DNA of 64,000 bases from Longimicrobiales bacterium (GTDB lineage: Bacteria; Gemmatimonadota; Gemmatimonadetes; Longimicrobiales; Gaopeijiaceae): contig OZ241892.1 in NCBI GenBank assembly GCA_965203485.1, forward strand, positions 352,001 through 416,000. Reading direction: 5' to 3'. The number at the start of each line of letters is the position of its first letter. Position 1 is the stretch's first letter. The notes beneath the pieces are model-generated. The model saw only the letters and a program-made list of their open reading frames with translations. It made no database searches and was not told the DNA's origin. The position numbers and the translations under genes were made by a program. Positions 1 through 27,775 of this stretch are shown in pieces.

Positions 1-3000
1 CCCGACTTGGACTTCGGGTTCTACCGCATCATGCACGCCAAGAGCGCCGAGATCACGAAGTTCCTGGAACAGGACCTGCTGCCGCAGGTGCGCGACGCGC
101 TATCTCAGTACCAGTCAGCGGACAAGGCCGTACTGGAACGAGAATTGACCGACGCCTTGCGAAGTGCCGAAGCCCTCGGCGTGAACCCCGACGACTCCAC
201 CACCGTCAAGGATCTCAGGGCCCGACTCGACCACGCCGTGGACGTAAAAACGCTCGAAGCCGAGGTCTACGACCATCTCTACGGATTCTTCCGTCGCTAC
301 TACTCCGACGGGGACTTCATCAGCAAGCGCGTGTACAAGCCCGGCGTGTACGCCATTCCCTACGCAGGCGAGGAAGTCAAGCTCCACTGGGCGAATGCGG
401 ACCAGTACTACATCAAGACGACGGAGTACCTGCGCGACTACGCGTTTCGCTTGCAACCGGCCAGCGACGCCGATCCCATGCGCGTCCATTTCCGCCTTGC
501 CGATGCGACCGAGGGCGAACACGGCAACATTAAGGAAGCTACGGCCAAAAAACGTGTCTTCGTGCTCCGGAACAGAGACTTCCTATCTGAGGAGAAAGGC
601 GAACGAGGCAATGAGCTGGTGATCCGGTTTGAGTATCGTCCAGCGACGTTGGCCGACTGGCCAGAAGACCGACGAGCACACCAAAGAAAGCCGCCCACCC
701 AGAAGGATCTGCTCCGTCTTGCCGAGGTCCGCCTATTGCAGGCAAGTGATCCAGGACTGGTCCGCTGGACCAAAGCTCTGGCCGCACCACACGTCAGTGC
801 CACTGGTGAGCCGACCGGCAATTCACGGTTTGGCACACACCTAGATCGCTATACGGCACGCAATACCTTTGACTACTTCATCCACAAGAACCTGGACGGG
901 TTTCTTCGCCGAGAGTTGGATTTCTATATCAAGAATGAAGTCATGTATCTGGATGACATCGATAACAGGGCCGCATTGGCCGTCGAGCAGTATTTCTCCA
1001 AGATCAAGGCAGTGCGGCACATCGGCTCAAAAATCATCAATTTCTTGGCACAGCTGGAAGATTTCCAGAAAAGGATGTGGCTGAAGAAAAAATTCGTAGT
1101 GGAAACTTCATACTGCGTTCGTTTGGACTGTGTACCAAAGAAATACTGGCCTAATGTCATGGCAAATCACGCCCAGCGTCACGAATGGACAACTCTATTG
1201 TCACATGACGGACACGATCGCGACTCGACTGGCATCGATTTCAACGGTTCCGGAGCCCTCGGTGATCATCCTGGCCTACTTGTCGATACATGCCATTATG
1301 ATAGTCAGTTTCGCGATCAACTATTGAGTGAATTCCAGAATATCGACAAACTAGTGGACGGAATTCTTATACACGGTGACAACTGGCAAGCACTTCGTAT
1401 GCTCGATCACAAGTATGACCGTAGCATCAAGCATGTCTACATCGACCCTCCGTACAACACAGACGCGACGGCGATTCCATACAAGAACGATTACAAGCAC
1501 TCCTCGTGGCTATCTCTCCTGGACAGTCGTCTTCGTCTATGTGCTAGGCTGTTGGAAGACGATGGCATCTTGGTGGTAGCAATAGACGAGAACGAACAGG
1601 AAAGGCTTGGCCTCTTGCTGAATGACCTATTCCCTAGCCACGCGCGCACGTGCGTGACAGTTGTCCACAACCCTGGCGGAATCCAGGGCGACAATTTCTC
1701 CTACAACAACGAGTTCGCGTACTTCATTTACCCGGCCAAAGGTCGTTCTATCGGACTCTGGAATCGTGAGGAAGCTCCGGACATCCGGCCGCTGAGGGAT
1801 GTTTCAACCGGGCAGCACATGAGAACAGACGCCCGGAATTGCTTCTATCCGATCTTGGTACGAGAGAACGACGTAGTAGGATTCGGCGACGTCTGTGATG
1901 ACGATTATCACCCGGAAGCTGCTAATGTTGTAGGTGCTGATGGTACTATTGAAGTATACCCAATAGATGCAAGAGGAAATGAACGCAAGTGGGTCTTTAG
2001 TCGGCAGACTGTAGAATCGATCAAAGGAGAACTCGCACCGAAATGGAATACGTCTAGAAAAATTGTCGACATCATCCGACGCAAGACTATGTTCAATTAC
2101 AAAACGGTATGGACCGACAAACGCTATAACGCAAACAGCTACGGATCAAAGTTGCTCAAGGACATCTTGGGCAAGCACTCAGCTTCGTTTATGTTTCCTA
2201 AGTCTTTGCATACCGTCTCAGATTGCATTGGTGCAGCGACTGACTCTGGAACCGACGGCCACCAGGTCGTGCTGGATTTTTTCGCAGGATCTGGAACCAC
2301 TGCTCACGCTGTCATGAAGCTGAACCGTGAGGATGGAGGCAGGCGGAAATTTGTGCTGGTGGAGATGGGCGACTATTTTGACTCGGTCCTGGTGCCACGC
2401 ATCAAAAAGATCAGTATTGCACCAGAATGGAAGGGTGGAAGGCCGAAGCGCGGTGCGACATCGGCGGAGAACGAGAGGTCGCCGCGCGTTATCAAGGTGG
2501 TCAGACTCGAGTCGTACGAGGATGCCATAGGCAATTTGCGTACACGAAGGGGCAATACGGCAGATCGGTCAGCACTCGACTTATTCTCGCGGGGGGACTC
2601 GGGGGAAGCTCGGGAACGGTACTTGCTCAACTACATGCTTGACGTGGAATCACAGGGTAGTGCGTCGTTGTTGAGCATTTCGGCATTCCACGACCCGACT
2701 TCCTACCGACTCAAGGTGAAGCGGCCGGGTACGGACGAGAGTCGGGAGGTCACTGTTGACCTGCTTGAGACGTTCAACTGGCTCATTGGACTAACGGTAC
2801 ATCGCATGACCGCGCCGCGAGCCTACTCGGCCGACACGGAACGAGATGCGGAAGGTCGGATGCAACTTGTCGGTGGATTGAGCGATCAGGACGATGGCCC
2901 ATGGTGGTTCCGCACGGTCACCGGTACGACGCCCGACGGTCGGCGCGTCCTCGTGATCTGGCGCAAGCGGCCGGGTGGCGAGTCGCCAGATGGCATTGAG

Positions 3001-3180
3001 GGAGACAACCTCGTGCTCGACGAGTGGTTCAAGCTTGCGAGCTCGTTTCGGGACGATGATGCGTACGACCTCATCTACGTCAACGGCAGCAACAATCTTG
3101 AGAACCTCAAGTCGCCGTCGGATACATGGACCGTTCGGCTCATCGAGGACGACTTCCATCGACTGATGTGGGAGCAGTGA
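1..3180 (+). CDS. mod: Type III restriction-modification DNA methyltransferase (Mod), 5'-truncated by window edge
   Basis: Frame open from base 1 ([11 protein letters not shown]); motif IV YIDPPYN precedes motif [11 protein letters not shown] (beta class); upstream of a Res-like helicase-nuclease. Confidence 0.92.
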
Positions 3181-3182
3181 CC

Positions 3183-3775
3183 ATGGCGACACAGTATCGC
3201 GAAGGGAGCTTTCCGCCAGAAGACCGCATGGGGCAGGTGGGAGCGCTACATCCACGAGGACGCGGCCGATCGGCTGCGTCCAGCTTGCTGTCGTTCATGC
3301 CGAATTCGAGGCTCTTCACCCGTTCCTGGACGCTTGTTGGAGCACGGCGTGATCAGCCAACCCCTCTTCTCCATCAGTGCCTACCTCGAGGCTCGTCGAG
3401 CCGAATACTACGAAGGACTGCTCGCCGTCTCCCGCGACGACGAATGGACGGGATGTTGGTCTTCTTGAAGGCGGTGCTGGCCCATGCCATGGACCACCTG
3501 TCAAAGGCGAGAGCGCTCCTCGGCCTCTACGAGACGATGAAAGAGCGGGTGGCAGACGTTACCCGGTCCCAGTATGCCATTCCTGCGCTTGATTGGGTTC
3601 AACAGCGCCTGGTTCTCAGTCCATGCGGGCGTCCCAACCTGCACGGCCCGACGGCTCTTGGCGAAACTGGTCGACCATGGCGTACTGCGGGTCCTCCAGG
3701 ACCCCAGCGGCCATCGGGGATCCATCCTGGTGCTCCCGGACCTCCTGCACGTTGCCGAGGGAAGGGATGTCTTCC
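3183..3775 (+). pseudogene. Degraded Fic-family protein
   Basis: Fragments in shifting frames: [13 protein letters not shown] / VQLAVVHAEFEALHPFLD (Fic motif cut before GNGR) / ISAYLEARRAEYYEGLLAVSRDDEWTG / RSQYAIPALDW / PTARRLLAKLVDHGVL...AEGRDVF (HTH-like tail). Confidence 0.75.
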
Positions 3776-3786
3776 GACGGTCACGG

Positions 3787-4003
3787 ATGGCCGTCAAACT
3801 CGTTCGGTGGCCACTTCCGGCACTTGGTGGCCGTTGCTTTGTCCTCTTGGCGGTCATTTCTGGCACTATATGGCCGTCCTGCCTGCTTGGCGGTCACGGG
3901 CGAAATCGGTTTGGCGGTCACATTCGGCGTTCTGTGGCCGCTTGGTCATCTTTGCGGTCACGCGTGTCCGCGAAGCCAGGTCGGCGGCCATACTTCCGGT
4001 TAC

Positions 4004-4013
<10 letters not shown>
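3787..4013. repeat. Degenerate array of about 11 copies of a 10-bp motif (TTGGCGGTCA-like) at about 20-bp spacing
   Basis: Exact TTGGCGGTCA at 3847, 3887, 3911; variants at 3787, 3807, 3827, 3870, 3934, 3951, 3981, 4004. Confidence 0.55.
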
Positions 4014-7321
<3,308 letters not shown>

Positions 7322-11777: not shown

Positions 11778-12953
11778 ATGCCGCCGGACTGGGCCGTGAC
11801 GGGCCGCCCCGAAGTCTACCTGGACAACAACGCCACCACCCGCGTCCTGCCGGAGGTGGCGGAGGCCGTCGCCCGGACAATGCGGGACGGTTGCGGCAAT
11901 CCTTCGAGCGTGCACGCCGCCGGCGCGCGAGCCAGGAAGCGGCTGTGGTTGGCCCGGGAGCAGGTCGCGGCCCTCGTTGCGGCCGATCCGGCCGCCGTGG
12001 TGTTCACCGGAGGGGCCACCGAAGCCAACAACTTGGCGCTCCAGAGCCTCCTCGGCGGGCCGATGGACGGCTACCGCCTGGTCACGACGGCCGTGGAGCA
12101 CCCGTCGGTGCTGGCCGTTGCCGGTGCGCTCGCGCGGCTGGATCGCGAGGTCGTGACGTTGCCGGTGGATTCGAACGGTATCGTCTGCGAAGAGGAGATG
12201 GCCCGGGCGATCGCGCCGGAACGGACGCTGGTCTCCGTCCAGTGGGCGAACAACGAGACGGGCGTGGTCCAGCCGATCGCGCGGTTGGCGACGCGGGCGC
12301 GGGCGCTTGGGGCGCGCTTCCACGCGGACGCGGTCCAAGCCGTCGGCAAGCTGCCGGTGGACTTGAACGCCGTCCCCGTCGATTTCCTTTCCCTGTCCGG
12401 CCACAAGCTGCACGGCCCGCTCGGCGCGGGGGCGTTGGTGGCGCGAGACCGAAGCCTGTTGCGGCCGTTGATGTTCGGGGGAGACCAAGAGGCGGCCTTG
12501 CGCCCTGGCACCGAGAACGTCCCGGCGATCGTTGGCCTCGGCGTTGCCTTGGCGCACCGGGCGGACCGCTTCGAGGCGGTAGCAACGGCCACGCGCGACA
12601 TGCGGGACGCATTCGAGTCCGGCGTCGCCAGACGGGGACTCGCGCGAGCGGTGAACGGCTCGGGCGCCCCCCGCTTGCCCAACACGTCCAACGTCCACTT
12701 TCTGGACATGGACGGCGAGGCGCTCGTCGTCCGGCTCGACCAGGCGGGCGTTCGGTGTTCCCAGAGTTCGGCCTGCACCAACCAGCGCCCCGAGCCGTCC
12801 TACGTGCTCCGCGCCATGGGCCTATCCGAACGCCAAGCGTACGCCAGCGCGCGGTTTGCCTTCTCCGAACTCAACCGCATGGCCGACGCGAACGCCGCCG
12901 TCGAGGCCATTGCCGCCGTCCACGCGAAGCTGCTTCCCTTCGCCGTCGCCTGA
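11778..12953 (+). CDS. sspA: Cysteine desulfurase (SspA/DndA/IscS-like)
   Basis: YLDNNATT, NNETG, HADAVQ, SGHKLHG (PLP lysine), SSACT (catalytic Cys); first gene of the DUF4007-ATPase-PAPS reductase operon; start uncertain. Confidence 0.85.
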   Translation: MPPDWAVTGRPEVYLDNNATTRVLPEVAEAVARTMRDGCGNPSSVHAAGARARKRLWLAREQVAALVAADPAAVVFTGGATEANNLALQSLLGGPMDGYRLVTTAVEHPSVLAVAGALARLDREVVTLPVDSNGIVCEEEMARAIAPERTLVSVQWANNETGVVQPIARLATRARALGARFHADAVQAVGKLPVDLNAVPVDFLSLSGHKLHGPLGAGALVARDRSLLRPLMFGGDQEAALRPGTENVPAIVGLGVALAHRADRFEAVATATRDMRDAFESGVARRGLARAVNGSGAPRLPNTSNVHFLDMDGEALVVRLDQAGVRCSQSSACTNQRPEPSYVLRAMGLSERQAYASARFAFSELNRMADANAAVEAIAAVHAKLLPFAVA

Positions 12954-12964
12954 AGGAGAACTCG

Positions 12965-13921
12965 TTGCGCTTCGGGGGACACCAGACGTTCGCGATCCGC
13001 GGCGGCTGGCTCTACAAGGGCCTTCGCATGGTCGTGCAGAATCCGGAACGCATGGACGATCCGGACGTGGCGGACTGGCTGGGCGTGGGGCGTAACATGG
13101 CCAAGTCCATTCACCACTGGCTTCTGGCCACTGGCTTGGCCGAGAAGGAGTTGACCGGCGGCGGCCGCACCAGGGCGCTTCGCCCGACGGACCTCGGCAA
13201 GACGGTCTGGGAGCGCGACCGCTATTTCCTGCTGCCGGGGACTTGGTGGGCCGTCCACGTCCAGTTGATCGACCGGCCCGCGTTCGCGTTCACGTGGAAC
13301 TGGTTCTTCAACGTGTTCAGCTCCGCGCGGTTCGAGCGTCCGGTGTGCGCAGAGGCGTTGCGGCGCCACTTGGCTGCCGGCGGCGGCCGGACGCCCAGTC
13401 CGCGCACGCTCGACCGGGACGTGGCTTGCCTCCTCCGCTCCTATTCGGTGAGCGTGCCGCGCCCGGAAGAGGACCCGGAAGACGCGATGGAGTGCCCGCT
13501 GAGCGAGCTGGGCATCATGCTCCATTCCCGCCAGACGGGGTTCTACCATGTAAACCGCGGACTCAAGCCCATTCCGTTCGAGCTCTTCGGGTACGCTCTA
13601 GCTGTCGGCCGGAAGCGTCTTCTCGGACGGCAGGCCGCTGGTCGAGCTGCCGGCGGACAACGGCCCGGCGATGGGCTCCGCGTGAACGGAGACCGGTCGC
13701 TTGCCGAGCTTGTCCATGAAGCCGGCGCCCCCGGACGGGTCTTCGCGATGACCGCGGAATCCTTGTACGAACTGGTGGCGGGCTACGAGGCGGAAGGACG
13801 GGTACGGCTGGACGGCCAAGCCGGAGAAAGGATCGTCCGCGTTCGGACAAGCGGGCCCGGGCCGGAATGGATGGCGCGCTACTACGACTCGGCGGACCGA
13901 GCCGCGGAGCAGGCTGCCTAG
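12965..13921 (+). CDS. sspB: DUF4007 protein (SspB-like)
   Basis: N-terminal FGGHQTFAIRGGWLYKG and LGVGRNMAKSIHHWL signatures; TTG start with AAGGAG RBS immediately after the sspA stop. Confidence 0.85.
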   Translation: MRFGGHQTFAIRGGWLYKGLRMVVQNPERMDDPDVADWLGVGRNMAKSIHHWLLATGLAEKELTGGGRTRALRPTDLGKTVWERDRYFLLPGTWWAVHVQLIDRPAFAFTWNWFFNVFSSARFERPVCAEALRRHLAAGGGRTPSPRTLDRDVACLLRSYSVSVPRPEEDPEDAMECPLSELGIMLHSRQTGFYHVNRGLKPIPFELFGYALAVGRKRLLGRQAAGRAAGGQRPGDGLRVNGDRSLAELVHEAGAPGRVFAMTAESLYELVAGYEAEGRVRLDGQAGERIVRVRTSGPGPEWMARYYDSADRAAEQAA

Positions 13922-16146
13922 GCCATGGTCCAGACCGCCTTCCTCCGCTCCATCAACATCCAGCTCGACGCCGGGCATCCCGAGCGCTTCGAGCACTTTC
14001 GACCAACGTCCAAGTCCGTGCGCTTGGTCTCGTCGCTGCTCCAAGGCGAGACGGGGAACGCGGTCTTCGTCGTTGCGCCGTACGGGTCCGGCAAGTCCGT
14101 CACGGCGGGATACGTAGGGCACTTGGTGGAAAACCGCCCCGAGGCCGCGGCGATGTTGCGCTTGGTCGAGGATCGGTTGGCGGGAATCGGCCCGGATCTG
14201 CGCAACCAAGTGGCGCGTAGGCGGACGGCGCCGCGACGGGGGCTGTTCGTCCCCCTCTACGGCCATGTGGACTCCGCGCCGGCCGCTCTGCGGAAGGGGT
14301 TGCTGGACGCGATGCGCCGAACGTCTTTGGGCAGGGAAGCGCGATCCGTCGCCGCGTTGGACGCGACGCGCGCCAACGACGTCCCCGCCCTGGTGAACGC
14401 ATGCCTCTGCAAGCTCGAACAAAGCGGACGGGATCGCTTGGTGATCGTTTGGGACGAGTTCGGACGCCACCTTCAAGGCTTGGTCTCGGAGGGCAGGCCG
14501 GAGGAGCTGGACGTGCTGCAGGCGTTGGCCGAGGTGGCCAGCCGCAGCGCCGGCGTTCCCGTGTCGCTCGTGCTGCTCCTGCACCGGTCCCTTCTCGGCT
14601 ACGCAACCGGATTGCCGCCGGGCTTGCGGCGAGAGTGGGCCAAGATCGAAGGCCGGTTCGAGACCCTCCAGTACGTGGACGACTCCACGGAGTTGTACGA
14701 ACTGGTGAGCTCGCTCGTTGCCGAGAACCGAGCCGTAGCAACGCCGAAAGCGGACTTCGCGCGCTTGGCGGCCGAAGCGAGAGACGCCGGGATGTTCCCG
14801 GACGTCGCCGAGGACCGCTTGGCCGGCATTCTGGCGGCGGCCCACCCGCTGTCCCCGGCAACGGTCTACCTGCTGCCTCGCGCAGCAGCCCGCGTCGCCC
14901 AGAACGAGCGCACTCTGTTCTCGTTTCTGCAGTGGGCGTCCTTGGACGCGCCGGTCTCGCCCGGAGCCTTGTACGACTACTTCCGAGGCGACTTCCGCAC
15001 GGACGGAGGCGCCGGCGGAACGCAACGCCCGTGGCTGGAGACCGAGAGCGCCTTGGGCAAGGTGGCGGACGGCTCGCTGGAGGCGGAAGCGCTCAAGAGC
15101 GCGTTTCTCCTGGGCCTGGGCCTGAGCGGGGAGCGGGGCCACGCAACCCGCAAGCAGCTGGCCTTCGCGTTGAAGGATGCTTGCGAAGAGACCGAATCCG
15201 GCGCGGACGGCGCAAGCCTCCCCGCTCTGCGTCTTGAGCCGGGGGTTGCTGGTGAAGATCAAGCGACGGGGCCCGGCCGCGCGGTCGACGAACTCGTGAA
15301 GCGGAACCTTCTCGTGCACCGGCGCCATTCGGACCAAGTCGTCGTTTGGCACGGGACCGACGTGGACTTGCGCGGCCGCTTGGAGGACGAGAAGAAGCGC
15401 CACGCGGGCGACTTCGATCTGGTCTCCTTCCTGGGGCGGGAGTTGCGCCCCCCCGTGTGGAGGCCCGTGGAATACAACGCAAGGCACGGAATAAGGCGCT
15501 ACTTGGAGGCCGAATACGCCACCTTCGCGGGGTTGGAGGCATTTTGGGATCGAATTCGGCTGGAGGGCTGGACGCCCGGGACGGACGGCCGCGTGCTGCA
15601 CGTGCTGCCGCAAGACGCGGACGAACTTGTCCAGGCCGAGGACATGGCCGCCGGCATCGGCGATCCGAGATTGTTCGTCGCGGTGGCGCGTGAAGTCTCG
15701 GCCCTCCGCAACGCCGCCGTCGATCTGTGGTGCCTGTTGCGGATGCACGCCGACCAGGACATGATTGGCGCCGATCCCATGATTGGCGCCGAACTCAACC
15801 ATCTCACCGACGACGCCCGAGCTGGGTTGCAGTCGCTTGCGGACCGTGTGCTGCGCCCCCAGCCCAACGGCAGCCGCTGGTTCCGCAAGGGCCGTCCGGT
15901 CGAGGCGGCCGACTTGCCGCAGTTGCGCCGGGCGCTGTCGCAAGCCATGGAGGAGGTGTTTGCCCTCACGCCCGAGATCGATTCGGAAATGGTGGTCCGG
16001 CGGTCGCCGTCGCCGGTGATCGTGAACGCCCGCAAGAAGGTCGAACTCGGCTTGTTGGAACGGTACGGCCGGGAGGACCTCGGCATCGAGGGCAACTCCG
16101 CCGACAAGGCGATCTTCAGGAGCGTGTTCCTGAGGACGGGTCTGTA

Positions 16147-16290
16147 CTGCCCAAACGGCAACTCCGCCGGTTCCCCGCGCGCGGGCGAGACCTGCCAAAA
16201 TGGCAGAACTCGGGTCTCGGAGGCCGAAGAAACCTGCCAAAATGGCAGTATGCTGAGGGCCAGAAAAGACGAAACCTGCCAAAATGGCAG
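16147..16290. repeat. In-frame palindromic repeat array, core CTGCCAAAATGGCAG, with dissimilar spacers
   Basis: Exact cores at 16192, 16234, 16276 (42-bp period); degenerate copy CTGCCCAAACGGCAA at 16147; encodes ETCQNG x3. Confidence 0.9.
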
Positions 16291-16659
16291 AACCTGGTTC
16301 CTGGCCGCTCCCGAGGACATGACCGGTCGTCCTGGCTTGAAGGCCGTCTGGGGTCGCGTCCGGGACTTCTTCGCGGAGCCCGGCAGGTCCAAGCCCTTCG
16401 GTGTTCTGCTCGACGAACTGAAGGAGCCGCCCTTCGGCGTGCGAGAAGGTCTCCTGCCGTTGCTTCTCGCCGCCGGCTTCCGAGCATTTCCCTCCGCAGC
16501 AACAATCCGCAAGGGCCGCGTGTTAGTGGACGACGTGTTGCCCTCGACGGTCGAGGACATCGCAAAGCACCCTGACCAATACGTCCTGGACGTAGTGGAC
16601 CTCGGGTCGGCCGAGAGGGCGTACCTGAACGCGTTGTCCGGTTTGTTCGGCATTACTTC

Positions 16660-16684
16660 GGGGGGGGGGGGGGGGGGGGGGGGG
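16660..16684. repeat. G25 homopolymer tract
   Basis: 25 consecutive G counted directly. Confidence 0.95.
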
Positions 16685-17563
16685 AGAGGCCCCATTACGC
16701 GGTTGCATAGCGGGTCTCCGAGAGTGGAGCCAACGGCTTCCGCGTAGCGCCGCGACGTCGCGTTTCCTCTCGCAGGAGGCGCGGACATTTGCCAGGGAAC
16801 TCGAGTCGGCCGACGCCGTCGCATTCCTCTTGGACCACCTGCCGCGTCTCGCGGGCGGATCCGTCGGCTCGCCCGAGTTGCTGGACGGAATCGCAGGGAT
16901 CAAGTCCGAGCTCGAGCGCGTAGGCACGACATTTCGGGACGAGGCCGTCCGTGCACTGCGCGAGGCCCTCGTGGCGCGTGGCGTCGCCGACGGCTTCGGC
17001 GGGTTGCCGAGTTGCCCTGCCGTGCGTGACGACGACCGCGCCACCGGTTGCGTTGTACCCAGTGCAACCAAAATTAACAACGCCGACTCGCACCCACCGG
17101 CGGTGGCTTTCACGTCTTGCGCCAGCGCCAACGCGCGCGATCACGCCGCGGCCTGGGCGGCGTGCTTCCCCGAGTCCTTCGTTGCCCACCTCGCGGACCG
17201 AGTGGCCAAGGGGGTCCTGACCCTTCTCGCCAAGCCGCACGACGACGACGGCGCGCTCGCAAACGCCCTGTCCACGCTGTTGCTGGGCCTGCCGCTCCAT
17301 CAGTGGAACGACGCCTCTCCGTCTTCGTTCCGCCGACAGCTGCACAGCGTGCTCGAGACGATCGAGGGCGCCGCGTTCGATCTGGCCCGCCGTCGCGGCC
17401 CGGATTCCGAGATCAGATCCGGGCTGGCCAAGCTGGCCGACGCCCGAACGCGCCAACTGGCCTCCCGTCTCGCCGAGTTGCTCGGCCGCGAAGAGGCCGC
17501 GCGCACGCTGGAAGCGGTCGCGGCACGCTTGCACGCGTCGGCCGGCGTCACCGCAGGCCGCCC

Positions 17564-18364
17564 ATGACGACCACCGACCAAGCCGCCGCGCTCGGCGCCG
17601 ACGGCGGGCACCGTCACATCGTCAACGTCTCGGGCGGCAAGGACTCGGCCGCCCTCGCCCTGTTCATGCAGGACCGCTACCCCTCCTTGGCCGTCGAGTA
17701 CGTCTTCTGCGACACCGGTTGCGAGTTGCCCGAGACCTACCAGTACCTGACCCGCCTCGAAGCCGTCTTGGGACAGAAGATCGCGCGCCTGAACGCCCTC
17801 GACCTGCTCGGCATCGCCAAGAAGCCCGGCCGAAACCCGTTCGACATCTGGTTGCACGAGGTCTACGGCGGCTTCCTCCCCAGCCCGCGCGCCCGCTGGT
17901 GCACCCGCGTACTGAAGATCAAGCCGTTCGAACACCATGTCGGCGACGACAAGGCGTTCAGCTACATCGGCATCCGCGGCGACGAGCACCGCGAAGGCTA
18001 CGCCTCCTCCAAGCCCCCCGTCTTCTCCGAGCAGCCGAACATCGTCCCCGTCTACCCATTCAAGGACCACGCCTTGGGACTCAACGACATCCACATGATC
18101 CTGGAGACCTCGGGACTCGGCCTGCCGAGCTACTACGAGTGGCGCTCTCGCTCAGGCTGCTACTTCTGCTTCTACCAGCAGGTGGGCGAATGGCAGGGGC
18201 TCAAGGAACGCCATCCCGAATGGTTCGAGCGGGCGAAGGAATACGAGGCGGCTGGCTTCACGTGGGTGGACGGTCGGACCTTGGAGGACATCGCCGCGCA
18301 GCCGAAGCGAGAACCGATTTCGGCGGCGGATGGCGGCGGCGGATGCGCGATATGCCATCTGTGA
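17564..18364 (+). CDS. sspD: PAPS-reductase-family PP-loop protein (SspD-like)
   Basis: SGGKDS PP-loop, DTGCELPETY, RWCTRVLKIKP, RSGCYFCFYQ, C-terminal CAICHL; ATGA overlap with sspC. Confidence 0.88.
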   Translation: MTTTDQAAALGADGGHRHIVNVSGGKDSAALALFMQDRYPSLAVEYVFCDTGCELPETYQYLTRLEAVLGQKIARLNALDLLGIAKKPGRNPFDIWLHEVYGGFLPSPRARWCTRVLKIKPFEHHVGDDKAFSYIGIRGDEHREGYASSKPPVFSEQPNIVPVYPFKDHALGLNDIHMILETSGLGLPSYYEWRSRSGCYFCFYQQVGEWQGLKERHPEWFERAKEYEAAGFTWVDGRTLEDIAAQPKREPISAADGGGGCAICHL

Positions 18365-18852
18365 CGCAGACCTTGCCGCGAGGATGGAGCCTGGATACCA
18401 AGCACTGGCGCATGCTCGCCGACAGCGATCTCGGCTGCGGTTGGAAGGTCGTACCCTTCGTCGAACAATGGCGAAGGGACCCGCCGGAGACATCTGGCGT
18501 GTACGTGATCAGCGGCTCTCCTCCGATTGAAGGACCGCTGTCGTCGTCCTGGTGTCCGCTCTATGTCGGGCAGACGCAGAATCTACGCGCCCGTTTCGCA
18601 GATCATCTGGGCAACAAGACGAACGTGCGCCGCATTCGCTTCTTTTCGTCTTTGAGATTTCACTTCTTTACGGTTCCCGGCGACACGCGCAGGCGCCGGA
18701 TCGTAGAACAACTACTCCTGGACGCCTTTGGCCCGGCTGCGAACGCAAGGCGATCTCTCGGCGTCACCGTCGGTCCAGAAATAAAGGGCATCGTCAAGCG
18801 TGGCCTTGCCTTAGCCAAGACAACATCCATCAAGAAAGCCGAATCGACATGA
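18361..18852 (+). CDS. GIY-YIG nuclease-family protein
   Basis: SGVYVI...LYVGQTQNLRARFADH...VEQLL...PAAN pattern; GTGA overlap with sspD and ATGA overlap with the next gene. Confidence 0.8.
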   Translation: MTQTLPRGWSLDTKHWRMLADSDLGCGWKVVPFVEQWRRDPPETSGVYVISGSPPIEGPLSSSWCPLYVGQTQNLRARFADHLGNKTNVRRIRFFSSLRFHFFTVPGDTRRRRIVEQLLLDAFGPAANARRSLGVTVGPEIKGIVKRGLALAKTTSIKKAEST

Positions 18853-19325
18853 ATCTTTATCCTGCAATTCACGCGACGATGGGCAGCTGGACCTATTACA
18901 TCGTAAAGCTCACGATGAGAGAGGTACAGGAACACATAAAATTCGCTCATGACATCCACGATGATCACACTCTCGATGATGCGATTCAGCGCACCATCAA
19001 CGAATCCAGAGTAAAGAAGGAAATCGTCTCGTATTTGCAGCGCCAGCACGATCGGTTCTTTTCTTCTCTTGTCGTCGCAGCTCTTGAAGGAAACCCCATC
19101 TGGTATCCAATTTCTATCGCCGACGACGAAAAATTTGCGATCTTCAAGGACGATTCCCGTCTTGCTTCTGCGTTCGGCGTCCTTAAGTTCGACGGGATGT
19201 CGAGCGACAACCAAGATGAGACGGTAGCGGCAACCAAGATGAGACTGCCGGAGGCGGCCGTGATCTGAGGTCGAGGGATTCGGACGCGGGTTCGGTCCTG
19301 TCGTTCGGAGGCCGGCCGTCGGTGA

Positions 19326-21748
<2,423 letters not shown>

Positions 21749-23644
21749 CCGCCCGGCTGCCCGGCCCAACGCCCGCGCCGACGACCGACCACCTGATCGG
21801 CGCCCGGGCTCGCTTCCACAACCGCCTCCGACTCGCAACCCCGGCGCCGGCGCTCGTGCGGAAGTCCCATGAAACAACCCGAATTCAGGGGTATCCCAGG
21901 TCGGGTCCGTGCGAGACCTCGCGTTAGACGGCCAGCAGCGGCCTCGAATTCCGGCAAGACCAGCCAACTCTCCGCGATCAAGCGCTTTGGGTCGGACGGG
22001 TGCCTGCTCCAGGGCCTCACTTGCCCCATGCCCAACCCCCTCGTCTTGACCCGTTCCACCTCCGTTGCCATCGTTCCTGTCACGATCCTGGACGTCTCAT
22101 CCTGATTGTCGCCGGGGTCTTATCCTGATTGTCGCTCTACAACGGGACGCAAAAATATTATGCATTGGACGGCCAGCACCGCCTCTCGGCAATCAGAACG
22201 CTCCTCGATTCTTCGGGAGACGAATGGAAGAACGCGCCGAAGGACTTCGCCAACGAAGAAATCTCCGTAATCATAGTGATGCCACCACAGGGGGATTCGT
22301 CGAACGACTTCTTCAAGCGATATCGGCGATTGTTCGGCAACCTTAATCGATATGCCAAACCGACTTCCCACTTTACCAACATCGTGATGGACGAGGACGA
22401 CACATTTGCGATTCTCACGCGACGATTGATCACCGAGCATGACTTCTTCAAGGCAAAAGAGGTGCCATACAAGGATTCACCCCGAATCAAGATGAAAAAA
22501 GGAAAAAACGTTGTCGGCAGGAGTACCGTATTCACAAGCCTGGAGACGCTCTACGCGATGAATGAACATCTTCTCAAGTCGCCGACGCGGCTCAATGCGG
22601 GATGGACGGACCGGACCTTCAAGGCATTTCGTCCGGATGACGACGAGCTGGACGACCTCTTCGGAGAATTGCGAAGACTCTGGGATGCTCTACTCGCGGT
22701 GTTGCCTGGCTTGCGCATGGACCCCGTCGTCATGCGATGTCATTCCAAAGAAAGCGACAAAGACTGCCTCCACAAGACCGAGAACATTGAGTGCGACGAT
22801 TCCGCGCTCTTTTGGCCCGTCACGCAGGAAATTCTTGCGAAGATGGCCCGAAAGTTAGTTGATGAAGACAACGTGGACGTCGATGGGACGTCGAGCTTCG
22901 AGAAGCGCTTGGAGCCATTGGCCCGGATCAAGTGGTCTCTTTGGATGCCTCCGTGGCGCAATTTGATTTTGATTCAGGACGGCAGCGGGTCCTGGAAGAT
23001 GAGAAACGAGGAACGAGCGAAGGCGGTAGAGGTCGCCGAGCGCATTCTCCTGTGGCAGCTGGGCATTGCATCTCTCGACCGCGACGGCCTGAGGGATCTC
23101 CGGGATGCTTGGCAACAATACCTGTTGCCCGACTTGGCGCCGCATAGGAAGGACGACATGTGGGAGGAGATCGAGTCGGCTCGCGCCCTTGGGTGATCGG
23201 CTTCGGCGAATCAGTTGTCGTCACCGAACGCTCGGCGTCGCCGTGGCGCGATATCAAATGACTGGACCAGGAAGGTCGACGACAGGCGACGCCCTTCCCT
23301 CTCGAACATATATCCACGCACGGCGAGTGGTTGCCGTTGGCGATTGCGGGCGTCGGCATTTGGTCGCCTGCGAGCGGCGTGGGAACGCCGGACGCCTTAC
23401 GGTGTCGCCGACGGCGGTGGAACCGCATCGAGGTGTTGTTGCCGGACGGTTTGCGAAAGCAGTGGAATGGAGTAGCCGGGCTGACGGTTGGGTCGCCGAT
23501 CGCTTGGACGGAGGTCTGGAGTTGCCCCGGTATGGTGGACGGGCAAGGATCTTGGGTTCAGATGGTGCAATGTGAAACATGACTTTAGGAAGGACGGAGG
23601 CGCAAGGGCGCCGAACGGTCTCGTGTCGAGGGGGTCGGTGCACT

Positions 23645-24493
23645 TTACGCGACCGCACGCTTGCGCTCGAAGCCGGCGGGGGATTCGTAGCCGAGCGCCG
23701 AGTGTCGGCGCCGCGAGTTGTAGAAGCCTTCGATGAAGGCGAAGACGGCGCGCCGGGCTTCGGCCGGACTTGTGAACTGGCAACGGTCCAGCAACTCGCA
23801 TTCCAACGTGGCGAAGAAGCTCTCGCACATCGCGTTGTCGTAGGCGTCGCCCACCGAGCCCGTCGAGCGACGCACGCCGGCCTTCCTGCACCGCTCGCCG
23901 AACGCCCAGGACGTGTACTGCGACCCCTGGTCCGAGTGATGGATCACGGTCTCTGGACTGCGGTTCTCGACGGCCATGGCGAGCGCGCGCTCGACGAGTT
24001 CGCCGCGCAGGTGCGTCTCCATGGCCCAGCCGACGACGCGGCGGCTCCAGGCGTCGACGACGACCGCCAGGTAGAGCCATCCGGCCCCGGCCGGCACGTA
24101 CGTGATGTCGGCGACCCAGAGCTGGTCGGGGCCTTCGGCGCTGAAGTCGCGCTCGACCAAGTCCGGAGCCGGGCGCGCGTGGGCGTCGCGCACCGTCAGC
24201 GCCACCTTGCGGCGCCTGCGGCTCGCGCCTTCGATGCCCTCCTCGCGCATGAGGCGGGCGACGCGCTTCGGACCGACGCGCTCGCCCCAGGCCGCGAGAT
24301 CGGCGTGGATGCGCGGTCGCCCGTACGTCCGCCGGCTCGCTTCCCAGCTGCGGCGCACCAAGACGCGCAACGCGTCGTCGCGCAACGCGCTCGCCGATCG
24401 GGGACGCTTCAGCCATGCATAGAAGCCGCTCGGGGAGAGACCGAGGACGCGGCACATCGCGCGCACGGGAAACACGGCCCGGTGCGCTTTCAC
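23645..24493 (-). CDS. IS3 OrfB (DDE integrase core)
   Basis: WVADITY, HHSDQGSQY, DNAMCESFF, YNSRRRHSALGY. Confidence 0.93.
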   Translation of the reverse strand: MKAHRAVFPVRAMCRVLGLSPSGFYAWLKRPRSASALRDDALRVLVRRSWEASRRTYGRPRIHADLAAWGERVGPKRVARLMREEGIEGASRRRRKVALTVRDAHARPAPDLVERDFSAEGPDQLWVADITYVPAGAGWLYLAVVVDAWSRRVVGWAMETHLRGELVERALAMAVENRSPETVIHHSDQGSQYTSWAFGERCRKAGVRRSTGSVGDAYDNAMCESFFATLECELLDRCQFTSPAEARRAVFAFIEGFYNSRRRHSALGYESPAGFERKRAVA

Positions 24494-24804
24494 GAACTCG
24501 AACCCTCTCCGGGAATCGAGCCGCTCTCCCGAGCGAACCAGGCCGCGGCTTTTTTTAGAATGTCGCGCTCGAGGCGCAACTGCTTGTTCTCCCGCTTCAG
24601 GCGGCGCAACTCGTCCCGCTCGCGCGTCGTCGTCCCGTCGTCGCGACGGCCCTCGTCGAGATCGGCCTGCTCGACCCAGTTGCGGATCGTCGGCGCCGAC
24701 GGCTCGAACTCACGCGCCAGCGCCTCCGGCGACCGGCCCGAACGCGCCAGATCCACCATTCGCCGCCGGTACTCCAGCGGGTACTGCTTGCGTTTCTTCG
24801 GCAT
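24490..24804 (-). CDS. IS3 OrfA (HTH); probable -1 programmed frameshift into OrfB
   Basis: HTH plus ELRRLKRENKQL zipper; slippery A7G (CTAAAAAAAGCC on minus strand, T run 24550-24556). Confidence 0.9.
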   Translation of the reverse strand: MPKKRKQYPLEYRRRMVDLARSGRSPEALAREFEPSAPTIRNWVEQADLDEGRRDDGTTTRERDELRRLKRENKQLRLERDILKKAAAWFARESGSIPGEGSSS

Positions 24805-26297
24805 CGTGGACTCCTCCTCGTCCCGAAAGATTGAACGTGTCCACCATGCCGGGGCAACTCCAGGTCGTCTGGTTGAGATCAGGCTTCCGGCGATCCGCGA
24901 GGGCTGGTCAAGTTACGAGGGCAGGTCGACGGTCGGCAGAATCATCATGCCGATGTTGACAACCGATCGACGGCGGCTTCCACTGTATGCGTACCAAAGA
25001 GAAGGACTCCGCAGGCTCATACGATCTCCCCGGTTTCTGCTTGCCGACGACATGGGGCTCGGAAAGACCATCCAGGCCGTAGTGGGCGCAAAACGATTGT
25101 TGGAAAGGGGACTCGTGCGCAGAATCTTGGTTGTGGCCCCGGTATCCGTCTTGCGCAATTGGGCCGTCGAGTTCGGGCGGTGGGCGCCAGAAGCATGCGT
25201 TCGAATTGCCATGGGGGCGTCGGCGCATGTCGCCTTTGAGGACTGCTGGAAGAACACTCATGTAATGGTGACGAACTACGAACAAATGCGTACGCCCGCT
25301 GCTGCGGTCTTGGAGCATCCGCCGGGATTGTTAGTGTTGGATGAAGCCCACAAGGTGAAGAAGTGGCGGTCGCAGAGGACGGAAGGAATTAGGAGAATTG
25401 ACGCGCGTTGCATATGGGCGCTGACGGGAACGCCGCTCGAGAAGGGCGAATTGGACCTTATTGGACTCATGAGTCTCCTGTTGCCGTCGAAGTTCAGTTT
25501 GCTGGATCGCGATCTTCCTCCGTCGATGTTGCGGGCACGAATCGAACCGTACGTGTGTAGACGAGAGAAGGCTGATGTACTCCGCGACTTGCCGCCAATA
25601 CAATATAGGAAGGAGAGTATACAGCTAACACCGAGGCAACGAGAAGCATACCAGAAGCTTGAATCGGAGATGAACACTACGGACGAACCTCTCGCCGTCT
25701 TTAGTCGGCTTCGCGAAGCCTGCGACTATGATCGCGCGACCGGCGACAGCGCGAAGATCGAGCGAGCATCAGAGCTCTTGGAGCGGATGTGCAGTAGCAG
25801 TGGGGCGAAGGCCGTTGTGTTCTCATACTTGCTGAAGCCGCTTAGACTTCTTCGAGCACGCTTGGAGGACATGAAACTGCCGTTCTGCGGCATCTATGAT
25901 GGTAGCTTGGAGGCATCGGAACGCCAGGCGCTCCTTGACGAGTTCTCGGCGCTCGAAAACGGAGCATTGCTGGCGTCGATGAGGGCGGCGGGAGAGGGCT
26001 TGACGCTTGTGGAGGCGAATCATGTGGTGCTGATCAATCGATGGTGGAACCCTTCGGCGAACCAACAAGCGATAGATCGCGTCCATCGCATTGGGCAACG
26101 GAAGCCCGTGACCGTCCATTGGCTGGAGGCGGTGAACACCCTGGACGAACGTTTGACCAAGATGTTGGGGAACAAGGAAGAGCGTTTTGAAGAGGTGATC
26201 GGACGTCTTCGACAAGGGCTGGCGACGCCGAAGGGGAGTCAGCCGAAGGCTTGAGGGCCGCTTCGGTCCTTGCGATCCGCTGGGTCCGAGCGAGCCG

Positions 26298-26660
26298 TCA
26301 GCGACTTCTGGCCGCCTGGGCCAGGAAGTCGCGTCCGGTGGCGCAGTCGATAAGCAGGTCGGCAATCTCGGCGAAGCGCTCCGCATCGGCGCGGTCGTCC
26401 AGCAACGCGGCAAGCTGGTCGGCGGTCTTTGGACCGAACTTCCGATGGGTTACGCGCAGCAAGGTGGCCCGTCTGCCCTCCCGCCGTCCGGCGCTCTGAC
26501 CTTCCGCGCGGCCTTTCGTGCGGCCTTCTTCAAGGCCTTTCGCGCGGCCTTCTTCAAGGCCCTCCTCGAGGCCCTTGGTGCGAGCCTCTCGGCGCTCCTT
26601 CGCCCACCATGTCTCGTAAACGGGGTTCTTGAGGTCTTCCAGCTCGTTCAGTCGCGCCAT
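26298..26660 (-). CDS. Putative internally initiated C-terminal Rpn protein (RpnS-like, 120 aa)
   Basis: In-frame ATG at 26660 preceded by AAGGAGG-AGACC on the minus strand. Confidence 0.5.
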   Translation of the reverse strand: MARLNELEDLKNPVYETWWAKERREARTKGLEEGLEEGRAKGLEEGRTKGRAEGQSAGRREGRRATLLRVTHRKFGPKTADQLAALLDDRADAERFAEIADLLIDCATGRDFLAQAARSR

Positions 26661-27473
26661 GGTCTCCTCCTTGGCTCCTTCGTTGATCATCGAACTGCGC
26701 ACCCAGTCCAGCAACGGCCGCCGGGCCGGGCTGTCCGGGGGCAACAGGCTCTTGAGCGTCGCCAGCGCCTCTCTAAACTCGTTGCGGCTCTGGGCGTAGC
26801 GCAACTGCAGACCCGCCGTTCGGGGCGTGTCGGCCGCCGCCAGCGACCTCGCCTCCGTTGCCTCCGACACTAACAGGAACTGTTGCCCGAGAGCGAACGG
26901 CAGGAACGCCTCGGCTTCGGTGGCCAGCATGTCCTGCAGGCGGGTAGGCGCGGTCCACGGGTCTGTGCCGACGTGCACGACGATGGGTAGCACGGGCGGT
27001 AGCTTGCCCGCCTTGCGCACCTCCGGCTCGTTGCAGATCTGGTCGTAGGCCAGTGCGGCTTCGAGCAGCATGCGCACGGGCATGCGCCGGTCTACGGTGG
27101 ACTGGACCTCGAAGAGGAAGACGACATGGAGCCACGATTCGCGAAGGGGCACCTTCCAAACGAGGTCTGTGTGGCGAACGGTCCTGGACTTGGGATCGAT
27201 GTGTTCGGTCGGGGCCTTCCAGAGTCGGCGGAGATCGACGCCCAGGGTGGCTTCGTCCGGGACGATCTTGCCGAAGACGTGCTTGCGGAGAAACTCCTCG
27301 ACCATCCCCCTGTCGCTGTAGAGGCGCTTGGCGGCCTTGTCCTTCGGCTGATGGACCGCCTTGCGGTGCAGCTCGTCCGGACGGGGGGCATCGGCGGGGG
27401 GATCCTTCCGGGGTGGCTGTTGGCGAGGCGGCCCCCGCTTGGGGTCACGGTCTCGGGGGTCGGCGGGGACCAT
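26298..27473 (-). CDS. Rpn/YhgA-like recombination-promoting nuclease (PD-(D/E)xK family)
   Basis: HTDLVWKV, LFEVQSTVDRRMPVRM, LPPVLPIVVH, C-terminal GLEEG/EGRAKG repeats and RKFG motif. Confidence 0.85.
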   Translation of the reverse strand: MVPADPRDRDPKRGPPRQQPPRKDPPADAPRPDELHRKAVHQPKDKAAKRLYSDRGMVEEFLRKHVFGKIVPDEATLGVDLRRLWKAPTEHIDPKSRTVRHTDLVWKVPLRESWLHVVFLFEVQSTVDRRMPVRMLLEAALAYDQICNEPEVRKAGKLPPVLPIVVHVGTDPWTAPTRLQDMLATEAEAFLPFALGQQFLLVSEATEARSLAAADTPRTAGLQLRYAQSRNEFREALATLKSLLPPDSPARRPLLDWVRSSMINEGAKEETMARLNELEDLKNPVYETWWAKERREARTKGLEEGLEEGRAKGLEEGRTKGRAEGQSAGRREGRRATLLRVTHRKFGPKTADQLAALLDDRADAERFAEIADLLIDCATGRDFLAQAARSR

Positions 27474-27775
27474 GGACGCTTCCTGGGTCGCTGGGGTTCC
27501 GGTGGTCTCCGGTCGAGCGGGCCATCGGCGGAGATCGTGGGGCGGGGCACGGAGCGCAACTGCAGTCGGCCCCTTAACCGTGGTGATTTCGTTGGGACAC
27601 CGGAATGGTTGAATGGGACGAGGCGCGGCACACTCGGACGACGGGCGGGAGGGCATCGGAGGACTCCTTGCCTTCCCGGCCGCCGTGCCTCACTTTGCCC
27701 GACTCCGCCGAGCGGTCTCCAAGCGCCGCAGGCGCGCCGTCCCACGAGAGAGTCGCTCCCAACGCCCGCACCATC

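Follow-up and report, generated by a model that had tools for sequence, protein, structure and literature searches.

A predicted GIY-YIG, DndB-like and SNF2 effector module of SspABCD phosphorothioation loci, inactivated in a Longimicrobiales genome, with probable phase variation of the modification genes

We examined a 64,000-nucleotide stretch of contig OZ241892.1 from a Longimicrobiales bacterium (hereafter the window), in which the four sspABCD genes for DNA phosphorothioate (PT) modification are followed by genes for a stand-alone GIY-YIG nuclease, a DndB-like protein with a DGQHR motif and a compact SNF2 ATPase (hereafter the trio). Overall, a known modification system is joined here to an apparently unpublished, widespread and predicted effector module; phase variation is probable, and this copy is inactivated. 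From its genomic context, the trio is a dedicated candidate effector module in the slot that other loci fill with SspE, SspFGH, Pbe-like or Mza-like genes. We see about an even chance that it is an SspE-like, PT-licensed Ssp effector module with a putative division of labour among its proteins.

An earlier reading made from the sequence alone (the sequence-only reading) had tied the three downstream genes to sspBCD, and we found them together far above chance in genomes, in metagenomes and in a sample of 300 genomes. The best 80 of 176 DGQHR relatives in a genome scan gave 78 loci from ten phyla, in which gene presence was scored with hidden Markov models built from BLAST clusters of those same loci. 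All of sspB, sspC and sspD were present in 67 loci, the GIY-YIG gene in 68 (61 by clustering alone; 3 of the 68 are weak matches in longer proteins), the SNF2 gene in 55 and everything in 49. Among the 58 loci with full 10-kb flanks, the corresponding counts were 53, 53, 43 and 40, and tblastn with the window's own proteins gave the same linkage pattern. In an independent metagenome set (80 of 243 relatives), GIY-YIG was found in all 63 loci with at least 600 nt upstream, SNF2 in 43 of 45 with at least 1.2 kb downstream; 21 of the 25 loci that had at least 5 kb of flank contained ssp genes. The phylum sample of 300 genomes, which were not chosen by their DGQHR gene, contained 19 genomes with SspD and 10 DGQHR matches, each no more than 10 kb from sspD (7 belong to this clade and 3 are more distant), and none of the 281 sspD-negative genomes had a DGQHR match; the resulting Fisher p of 7e-14 (10/19 versus 0/281) is overstated, because kin genomes are not independent. 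Twelve of 400 Pseudomonadota genomes had SspD, and this clade was found in none of the 400; it is rare in that phylum, since the DGQHR matches there were weaker ones only (4 of 400, 2 of them near sspD). A scan of viral contigs gave nothing with a single-protein query and 9 distant members only with an alignment query.

The trio is convergent with, divergent from or upstream of the ssp genes in other loci, and the link survives these rearrangements. Sequence identities over 41 loci correlated best between the GIY-YIG and DGQHR proteins (rho 0.69), followed by DGQHR and SspD (0.32) and GIY-YIG and SspD (0.21). The GC content at third codon positions (GC3) was 0.65 to 0.67 in the trio versus 0.82 to 0.89 in the ssp genes. 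The DGQHR genes of two congeners were 46% versus 100% identical to the DGQHR homolog P0002, while both SspD proteins were 83 to 84% identical to that of the window; the congener with the 46% gene has no SNF2 gene. The cassette is exchangeable between congeners. The differing GC content, together with a few members that have no ssp nearby (locus L072 has none, and in L031 sspD lies just beyond the 10-kb flank), could be explained if the cassette worked in defence independently and had no tie to ssp beyond lying in a common island. This is very improbable and already largely refuted, given that none of the 281 sspD-negative genomes carries the cassette and that the adjacency is kept over ten phyla and several gene orders.

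The trio also behaved as one of several alternative modules beside sspD. Among 21 non-self genomes with sspD, this module occurred in 8, a Pbe-like module in 7, a helicase with an MzaB-like ATPase and a PLD protein in 5 and an SspG/H-like module in 1, with no overlap; SspE was found in 2 of the 21, each time beside another module and never beside this one. In the 78 loci, SspE and PbeA were present in 3 each. The genome of the window had no match to SspE, SspG/H or dndBCDE, so that the sspE or sspFGH that the sequence-only reading had named as another possible source of restriction did not appear elsewhere in it. SspF, SspG and SspH models matched none of the three trio genes; in the whole genome, the only SspH match was the housekeeping FtsK, and SspG was found neither by a family search, the controls of which were also blank, nor by tblastn with two SspG-like proteins. 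No named PADLOC system matched the trio as a set. Five DUF262 genes were considered as SspE candidates and rejected: their best matches were HEC-06/Orf5 (two genes) and Menshen NsnA (three genes), with at most 34 bits to the SspE model. Two genes of the genome (C1:2322996-2323925 and 3097598-3098482) scored above the cutoff of NF045808, a family of PT-DNA-binding restriction endonucleases (SBD-HNH), which is also represented near 13 to 15 of the 78 related loci.

The other modules were recognizable by their gene content. The Pbe-like set after sspD consists of a sigma-like gene, PbeA and a CxC ABC ATPase (L107, L108, L112 to L115, and L117), the helicase, MzaB-like ATPase and PLD genes follow sspD in L018, L105, L109, L116 and L119, and L129 holds a further slot module. 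Additionally, a more distant GIY-YIG and DGQHR pair without SNF2 accompanies loci of the Pbe-like, Mza-like, SspFGH and dnd types as an add-on (L129 to L132, L108, L115, L116, L120 to L122, and L125), including cultured Roseobacter and Rhizobium plasmids. In a quick IQ-TREE tree with flagged long branches, the DGQHR protein of this pair formed a separate branch, and both branches were distinct from canonical DndB. This add-on position would suit a backup suicide function, in which a phage blocks Ssp and the DGQHR protein then drains NTPs or frees the GIY-YIG nuclease onto host DNA (abortive infection), a role proposed both for DndB and for the stand-alone URI/GIY-YIG nucleases that border Dnd loci (PMC10853773). 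However, the DGQHR clade of the window is as a rule the sole effector at its locus and so has nothing to back up, and 55 of the 78 loci have a dedicated SNF2 motor; we therefore regard such a function as unlikely.

All three trio proteins keep their catalytic residues. Each of the 38 aligned homologs of the GIY-YIG protein has Y51, Y71, R81, H85, E119 and N131, and profile matches were obtained to the UvrC N-terminal domain (E 7.5e-6), Eco29kI, T4 endonuclease II and I-TevI. The DGQHR protein has 1317 homologs, of which the 120 listed are mostly close to 460 aa long, and its QR, DGQHR and FxxxN motifs are invariant. A model of the intact homolog P0002 (pLDDT 84) has a ParB/sulfiredoxin (Srx) N-terminal domain and a mostly helical remainder; VIA-align placed PadC first (Z 6.9; root mean square deviation [rmsd], 3.2; 95 residues), then KorB and sulfiredoxin, and its top five rows were all ParB/Srx, with modest Z scores of 5.6 to 6.9, rmsd of about 3 to 6 and 89 to 191 aligned residues. 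As modeled, the N-terminal domain has a ParB-like NTPase fold with the DGQHR signature. The full-length homolog had no GmrSD_C or HNH match in Pfam. The SspE model did not match P0002, the motif of which is DGQHR and not DGQQR and the best families of which are DndB/TIGR03187. Atlas neighbours of residues 190 to 460 were DndB-like or unnamed, no PDB fold match stood out for the C-terminal part within the whole-protein model, the DGQHR profile had no real match among PDB sequences, and Foldseek gave none at E 0.001. The SNF2 protein conserves motifs I, II and VI in a compact core of two RecA lobes, with an N-terminal beta/alpha domain of about 110 aa, and no nuclease domain was seen in it; the model of an intact homolog from L024, the closest intact locus and one with the whole set of seven genes in frame, (pLDDT 91) matched SWI2/SNF2 cores in Foldseek at E 1e-28, and an Atlas search with the N-terminal 115 aa returned only leads under 0.9. 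A complex prediction for the DGQHR and GIY-YIG proteins scored 0.00 and was counted neither for nor against binding. Elsewhere, the module has extra genes: an uncharacterized 260-aa protein upstream of GIY-YIG (L027:8753-9532), which is common in metagenome loci, a likewise uncharacterized 275-aa protein downstream on the other strand (L073:11403-12227), and a 624-aa second DGQHR protein (L099:8101-9972), which usually replaces the small GIY-YIG nuclease.

The closest named family of the DGQHR protein is DndB, a characterized transcriptional regulator (PMC4507180). Together with a DndB-like QR context and a nuclease the best structural relative of which is the UvrC N-terminal domain, this fits a DGQHR protein that represses or limits ssp in an ATP-dependent manner, like DndB, while the GIY-YIG and SNF2 proteins repair nicks or oxidized PT sites. 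Such a helper should accompany every effector type, whereas this module excludes other effectors; its DGQHR clade is separate from canonical DndB, and the DGQHR gene does not head the operon but sits downstream of it or on the opposite strand. The swapping of the cassette between congeners, along with its lower GC3, is moreover a turnover typical of conflict genes. We consider a regulatory and repair role rather unlikely, if marginally less so than the backup function above.

Tracts of G or C in sspB and sspC, the lengths of which are consensus values, suggest that the modification is phase variable. The sspC frame of the window is open with 21, 24 or 27 G in its homopolymer and stops at codon 941 with the assembled 25 G, while sspC is one unbroken frame in two congeners. 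Short-read contigs end at the tract in all three well-covered runs, and 25 is the consensus length of the assembly. The sequence-only reading had treated the tract as a defect to be repaired by removing one G; 24 G does reopen sspC, but the tract looks like a contingency (phase-variation) locus. None of five close homologs has a G tract at this site. In a census of 93 de-duplicated related loci (1.76 Mb), we found 21 G/C runs of at least 11 nt, 2 of them at contig edges. Of the 19 others, 12 lay within sspB or sspC, which make up 20.7% of the DNA (binomial p 7e-5), 5 were located 95 to 203 nt upstream of sspB and 2 lay elsewhere; none fell in the trio, though it makes up 14.3% of the DNA. The tracts in sspB and sspC map to at least seven different sites and thus arose repeatedly. 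The runs upstream of sspB, C11 to C17 in Poribacteria loci (L035:2160, L039:2393, L043:695, L047:4026, and L052:3110), are possibly a promoter-spacing switch. Among the 78 loci, 11 of 13 split sspC genes break at a run of at least 9 nt; the 80 metagenome loci, most of them short and with a lower GC content, showed no run of at least 9 nt. A full-length DGQHR frame is kept in 14 loci with sspB or sspC out of frame at a G/C run, and a full SNF2 frame is kept in 12 of them. Since the effector frames are intact where sspB or sspC is out of frame, the effector is apparently nontoxic without PT.

Long G/C runs are not confined to the ssp locus in this genome. There are 42 runs of 14 to 30 nt, several of them in or beside restriction-modification, giant adhesin-like and polysaccharide genes. 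The 56 frames beside the runs include, among their matches, four type IIG/I restriction-methylase fusions and a type III methyltransferase, as well as giant adhesin-like proteins, a TonB receptor and polysaccharide genes; for many frames, nothing matched. Restriction-methylase, adhesin, TonB and polysaccharide genes are classic contingency targets, and the runs look like a genome-wide contingency repertoire. Runs also lie upstream of mutS (C1:2516940) and rpsA (C1:1037531), and eight runs of 20 to 27 nt are packed into 5 kb at C1:2327773-2332599, five of them about 925 nt apart with near-identical flanks; the six frames around these had no Pfam or PADLOC match.

To judge from its two insertion sequence (IS) elements, the effector module is dead in this genome; the consensus sequence, in addition, has sspC out of frame. 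The DGQHR gene is interrupted by an IS21-family element with a 6-bp target duplication (three identical copies in the genome) and the SNF2 gene by an IS3-family element with a 4-bp target duplication (eight identical full copies). Excision of 19198-22147 and 23517-24866 restores stop-free frames of 465 and 548 aa, just as the sequence-only reading had proposed; its view that these two genes become visible only after excision did not hold, as both DndB halves and a 462-aa SNF2 frame match Pfam directly. In short-read contigs, a joint between the DGQHR gene and an end of the IS21 was seen in two samples of one study, the source sample possibly among them, and the joint into the IS3 end in two runs of one sample, and no joint skipping either element was present among the 15 of 60 joints listed. 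Both remaining identical copies of the IS21 are located within a BREX-3 locus (PglZ, PglXI, and BrxC; C1:263774-289644), so that all three sit in defence loci.

Two independent IS elements in the 3.5 kb of the effector genes, and none in the 7 kb of sspABCD and GIY-YIG, in a genome where sspC is out of frame, is the pattern expected if the trio carries out PT-protected restriction in the manner of SspFGH, DndFGH and DndI, becomes toxic when sspC slips and was inactivated by insertions selected as an escape. SspFGH and DndI are indeed toxic without PT (PMC8092258, PMC11662687). However, 14 other loci with frameshifted sspB or sspC keep their effector frames intact, the trio has no tracts where a coupled off-switch would be needed, and the two IS21 copies in the BREX-3 locus indicate that insertions in defence islands are common here. 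PT-protected restriction with selected escape from self-attack is therefore improbable in our view.

The SspE-like, PT-licensed logic is favored because effectors are intact where sspC is out of frame. SspABCD would, by family membership, write single-strand PT marks on host DNA. The ParB-fold DGQHR protein would serve as an NTP-dependent DNA sensor or clamp, with a state set by host PT, and would permit the small GIY-YIG nuclease to cleave or nick unmodified DNA that enters the cell; the SNF2 motor would travel on double-stranded DNA, scanning it or delivering the nuclease. Overall, an SspE-like logic would here be divided among several proteins and would use another nuclease fold, and a module that is harmless with PT off would allow host-associated lineages to switch sspB or sspC by poly-G/C tracts.

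Several observations weigh against this scheme. SspE and DndI sense PT through a tyrosine, which is Y30 of the PxYQR motif in StSspE. At the corresponding position, 82 DGQHR members had Ile in 77, Leu in 3, Val in 1 and Tyr in 1, which weakens a simple split-SspE model, and the QR context resembles that of DndB and not SspE; PT sensing would therefore need another surface. The sequence-only proposal that the trio replaces SspE is thus borne out for the effector slot, which the trio fills to the exclusion of other modules, but the replaced tyrosine weakens the case that it would work like SspE. SNF2 is absent in 15 of the 58 full-flank loci, the congener locus L011 among them, and many of the SNF2 genes that are present lie on the opposite strand. 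Genome G348, which holds L072, has a DGQHR gene and no sspD match, and the draft genomes G751 and G752 also lack an sspD match, yet L058 in G751 holds sspB and sspC. The count of 11 of 13 out of frame is no different from the two-thirds expected at random (p 0.14), and the out-of-frame calls rest on consensus homopolymer lengths, in which assembly errors are possible. Finally, both IS-disrupted genes are effector genes and sspABCD is spared, which also fits escape from self-toxicity.

The organization of the locus agreed with the sequence-only reading, in which the genes form a co-directional series with overlaps and short gaps (Table 1). All seven lie on the plus strand in the order sspA, sspB, sspC, sspD, GIY-YIG, DGQHR and SNF2, and the junctions were verified: sspA and sspB are 11 nt apart and sspB and sspC 3 nt, sspC overlaps sspD by ATGA, sspD overlaps the GIY-YIG gene by 13 nt, the GIY-YIG gene overlaps the DGQHR gene by ATGA, and 61 nt separate the DGQHR and SNF2 genes. 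This 61-nt gap is bridged by a mini-open reading frame (mini-ORF) that shares a GTGA overlap with the DGQHR stop and an ATGA overlap with the SNF2 start; it may couple translation of the two genes or may be a chance occurrence. The identification of the first four genes as SspABCD was confirmed by PADLOC best matches, and they form an SspABCD modification module with single-strand PT activity predicted from the characterized Ssp systems, in which the mark is CpsCA. The motifs that we take, from general knowledge of these families, to matter for catalysis are present in SspA (SGHK pyridoxal phosphate motif at 207 and SSAC motif at 330), SspC (Walker A at 52 and Walker B at 176) and SspD (SGGKDS and Cys motifs), and sspB starts, as read from the sequence, at a TTG behind AAGGAG. 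Within sspC, three near-identical palindromic units of about 20 nt (16185-16295) are in frame and each encode ETCQNG. The closest named relatives are metagenome-assembled genomes of Longimicrobiales (Gemmatimonadota), with SspA to SspD 77 to 84% identical; numerous further relatives are titled Poribacteria, Poriferisodalis and the like, names of sponge symbionts.

Table 1. Features of the ssp locus, in positions of the window
Feature	Coordinates	Strand	Basis
sspA, cysteine desulfurase, 391 aa	11778..12953	+	PADLOC SspA E 7e-117; Pfam Aminotran_5
sspB, DUF4007, 318 aa	12965..13921	+	PADLOC SspB E 1e-97; Pfam DUF4007
sspC, P-loop ATPase, ~1213 aa if in frame	13925..17567	+	PADLOC SspC E 6e-120
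G25 homopolymer within sspC, candidate phase-variation switch	16660..16684	+	
sspD, PAPS-reductase-like, 266 aa	17564..18364	+	PADLOC SspD E 1.5e-89
Stand-alone GIY-YIG nuclease, 166 aa, intact	18352..18852	+	Alignment and profile matches; weak Pfam GIY-YIG
DndB-like DGQHR protein, 465 aa	18849..23196 (pieces 18849-19197 and 22148-23196)	+	Pfam DndB, TIGR03187
IS21-family element in DGQHR gene (istA 19380-20954, istB 20951-21748)	19198..22141	+	
22-codon mini-ORF between DGQHR and SNF2 genes	23193..23261	+	Sequence
Compact SNF2 ATPase, 548 aa	23258..26254 (pieces 23258-23516 and 24867-26254)	+	Pfam SNF2-rel_dom and Helicase_C
IS3-family element in SNF2 gene (orfA 24804-24490, orfB 24493-23645)	23517..24862	-	

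A type III restriction-modification pair (mod and res) occupies window positions 1-7318, 4.5 kb upstream of sspA. An Rpn/YhgA-like gene on the minus strand (26301-27476) converges on the SNF2 gene, and a homolog of it directly follows the DGQHR gene in the congener locus L011. The flanks of the locus hold Sel1-repeat, Rpn and peptidase genes.

Of 2,678 sspBCD loci surveyed previously, 2,211 (83.9%) had neither sspE nor sspFGH, and other restriction partners were asked about (PMC8092258). The module is a concrete candidate partner for such orphan loci, with 8 of the 21 sspD genomes sampled in the phylum and members in ten phyla. If this is true, a GIY-YIG nuclease and an SNF2 motor would for the first time be part of a PT system, and restriction would become one of the roles of a DndB-like protein. 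The recurrence of poly-G/C tracts in sspB and sspC suggests populations that mix PT-on and PT-off cells, a bet-hedging layer. The wider proposal could equally well prove right or wrong: that the trio is a third, unpublished class of single-strand PT effector, with a PT-reading surface unlike that of SspE, that it explains part of the orphan sspBCD loci, and that it is paired in host-associated bacteria with independently evolved poly-G/C switches in sspB or sspC. A literature search, with most subscription papers outside its reach, found no description of the trio with ssp or of phase-variable PT, and the SspD neighbourhood table of PMC12914056 has no DndB or GIY-YIG entry.

Compared with SspABCD-SspE, the locus has the same modification genes and an effector with a ParB-superfamily NTPase domain, a DGQxR motif and a nuclease (PMC13251355, PMC8092258). 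SspE, however, is a single DUF262 and HNH protein of about 770 aa with a PxYQR pocket, whereas this module has a 465-aa DGQHR protein without an HNH match or the tyrosine, a separate GIY-YIG nuclease and an added SNF2 motor. SspFGH is likewise a three-gene module by sspBCD that includes a DNA motor, but SspF is a Walker A protein, SspH has an FtsK-like end and neither shows homology to the trio (PMC8092258); SspFGH is toxic without PT, whereas SspE is not (PMC8092258, PMC13251355). With the DndB of DndABCDE, the DGQHR protein shares the PF14072/TIGR03187 domain and the QR, DGQHR and FxxxN motifs (PMC4507180, PMC10853773), and GIY-YIG/URI nucleases occur at the edges of Dnd loci; SspE has been treated as the DndB equivalent (PMC10853773). 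It differs from DndB in being about 100 aa longer, in forming a separate clade, in scoring 59 bits against the DndB equivalog cutoff of 328 and in traveling with GIY-YIG and ssp without dndC or dndD nearby; no match to the DndC or DndD references was found in the 80 metagenome or 78 genome loci. The sequence-only description of the locus as a hybrid with Dnd was accordingly abandoned.

The IscS-DndBCDE-DndI system also couples a PT-linked ParB-like NTPase to a nicking nuclease, but DndI is a DUF262-HNH fusion that is bound up with double-strand PT of the Dnd type and does harm when PT is absent (PMC11662687). Type 4 BREX shares the cysteine desulfurase, DUF4007, a BrxC/SspC-like ATPase and a PAPS reductase, but it needs PglZ and BrxL at the locus (PMC12839542, PMC12914056). 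Type 4 BREX was rejected for this locus: the two PglZ matches of the genome are PorX, 27 kb away, and the PglZ of the BREX-3 locus elsewhere (BrxL was not searched as a family). Similarly, phase-variable restriction-modification methyltransferases have a homopolymer tract in the modification gene that shifts its frame (PMC7383803); here, in contrast, the mark would be sulfur in the backbone, and it is sspC or sspB that carries the tract.

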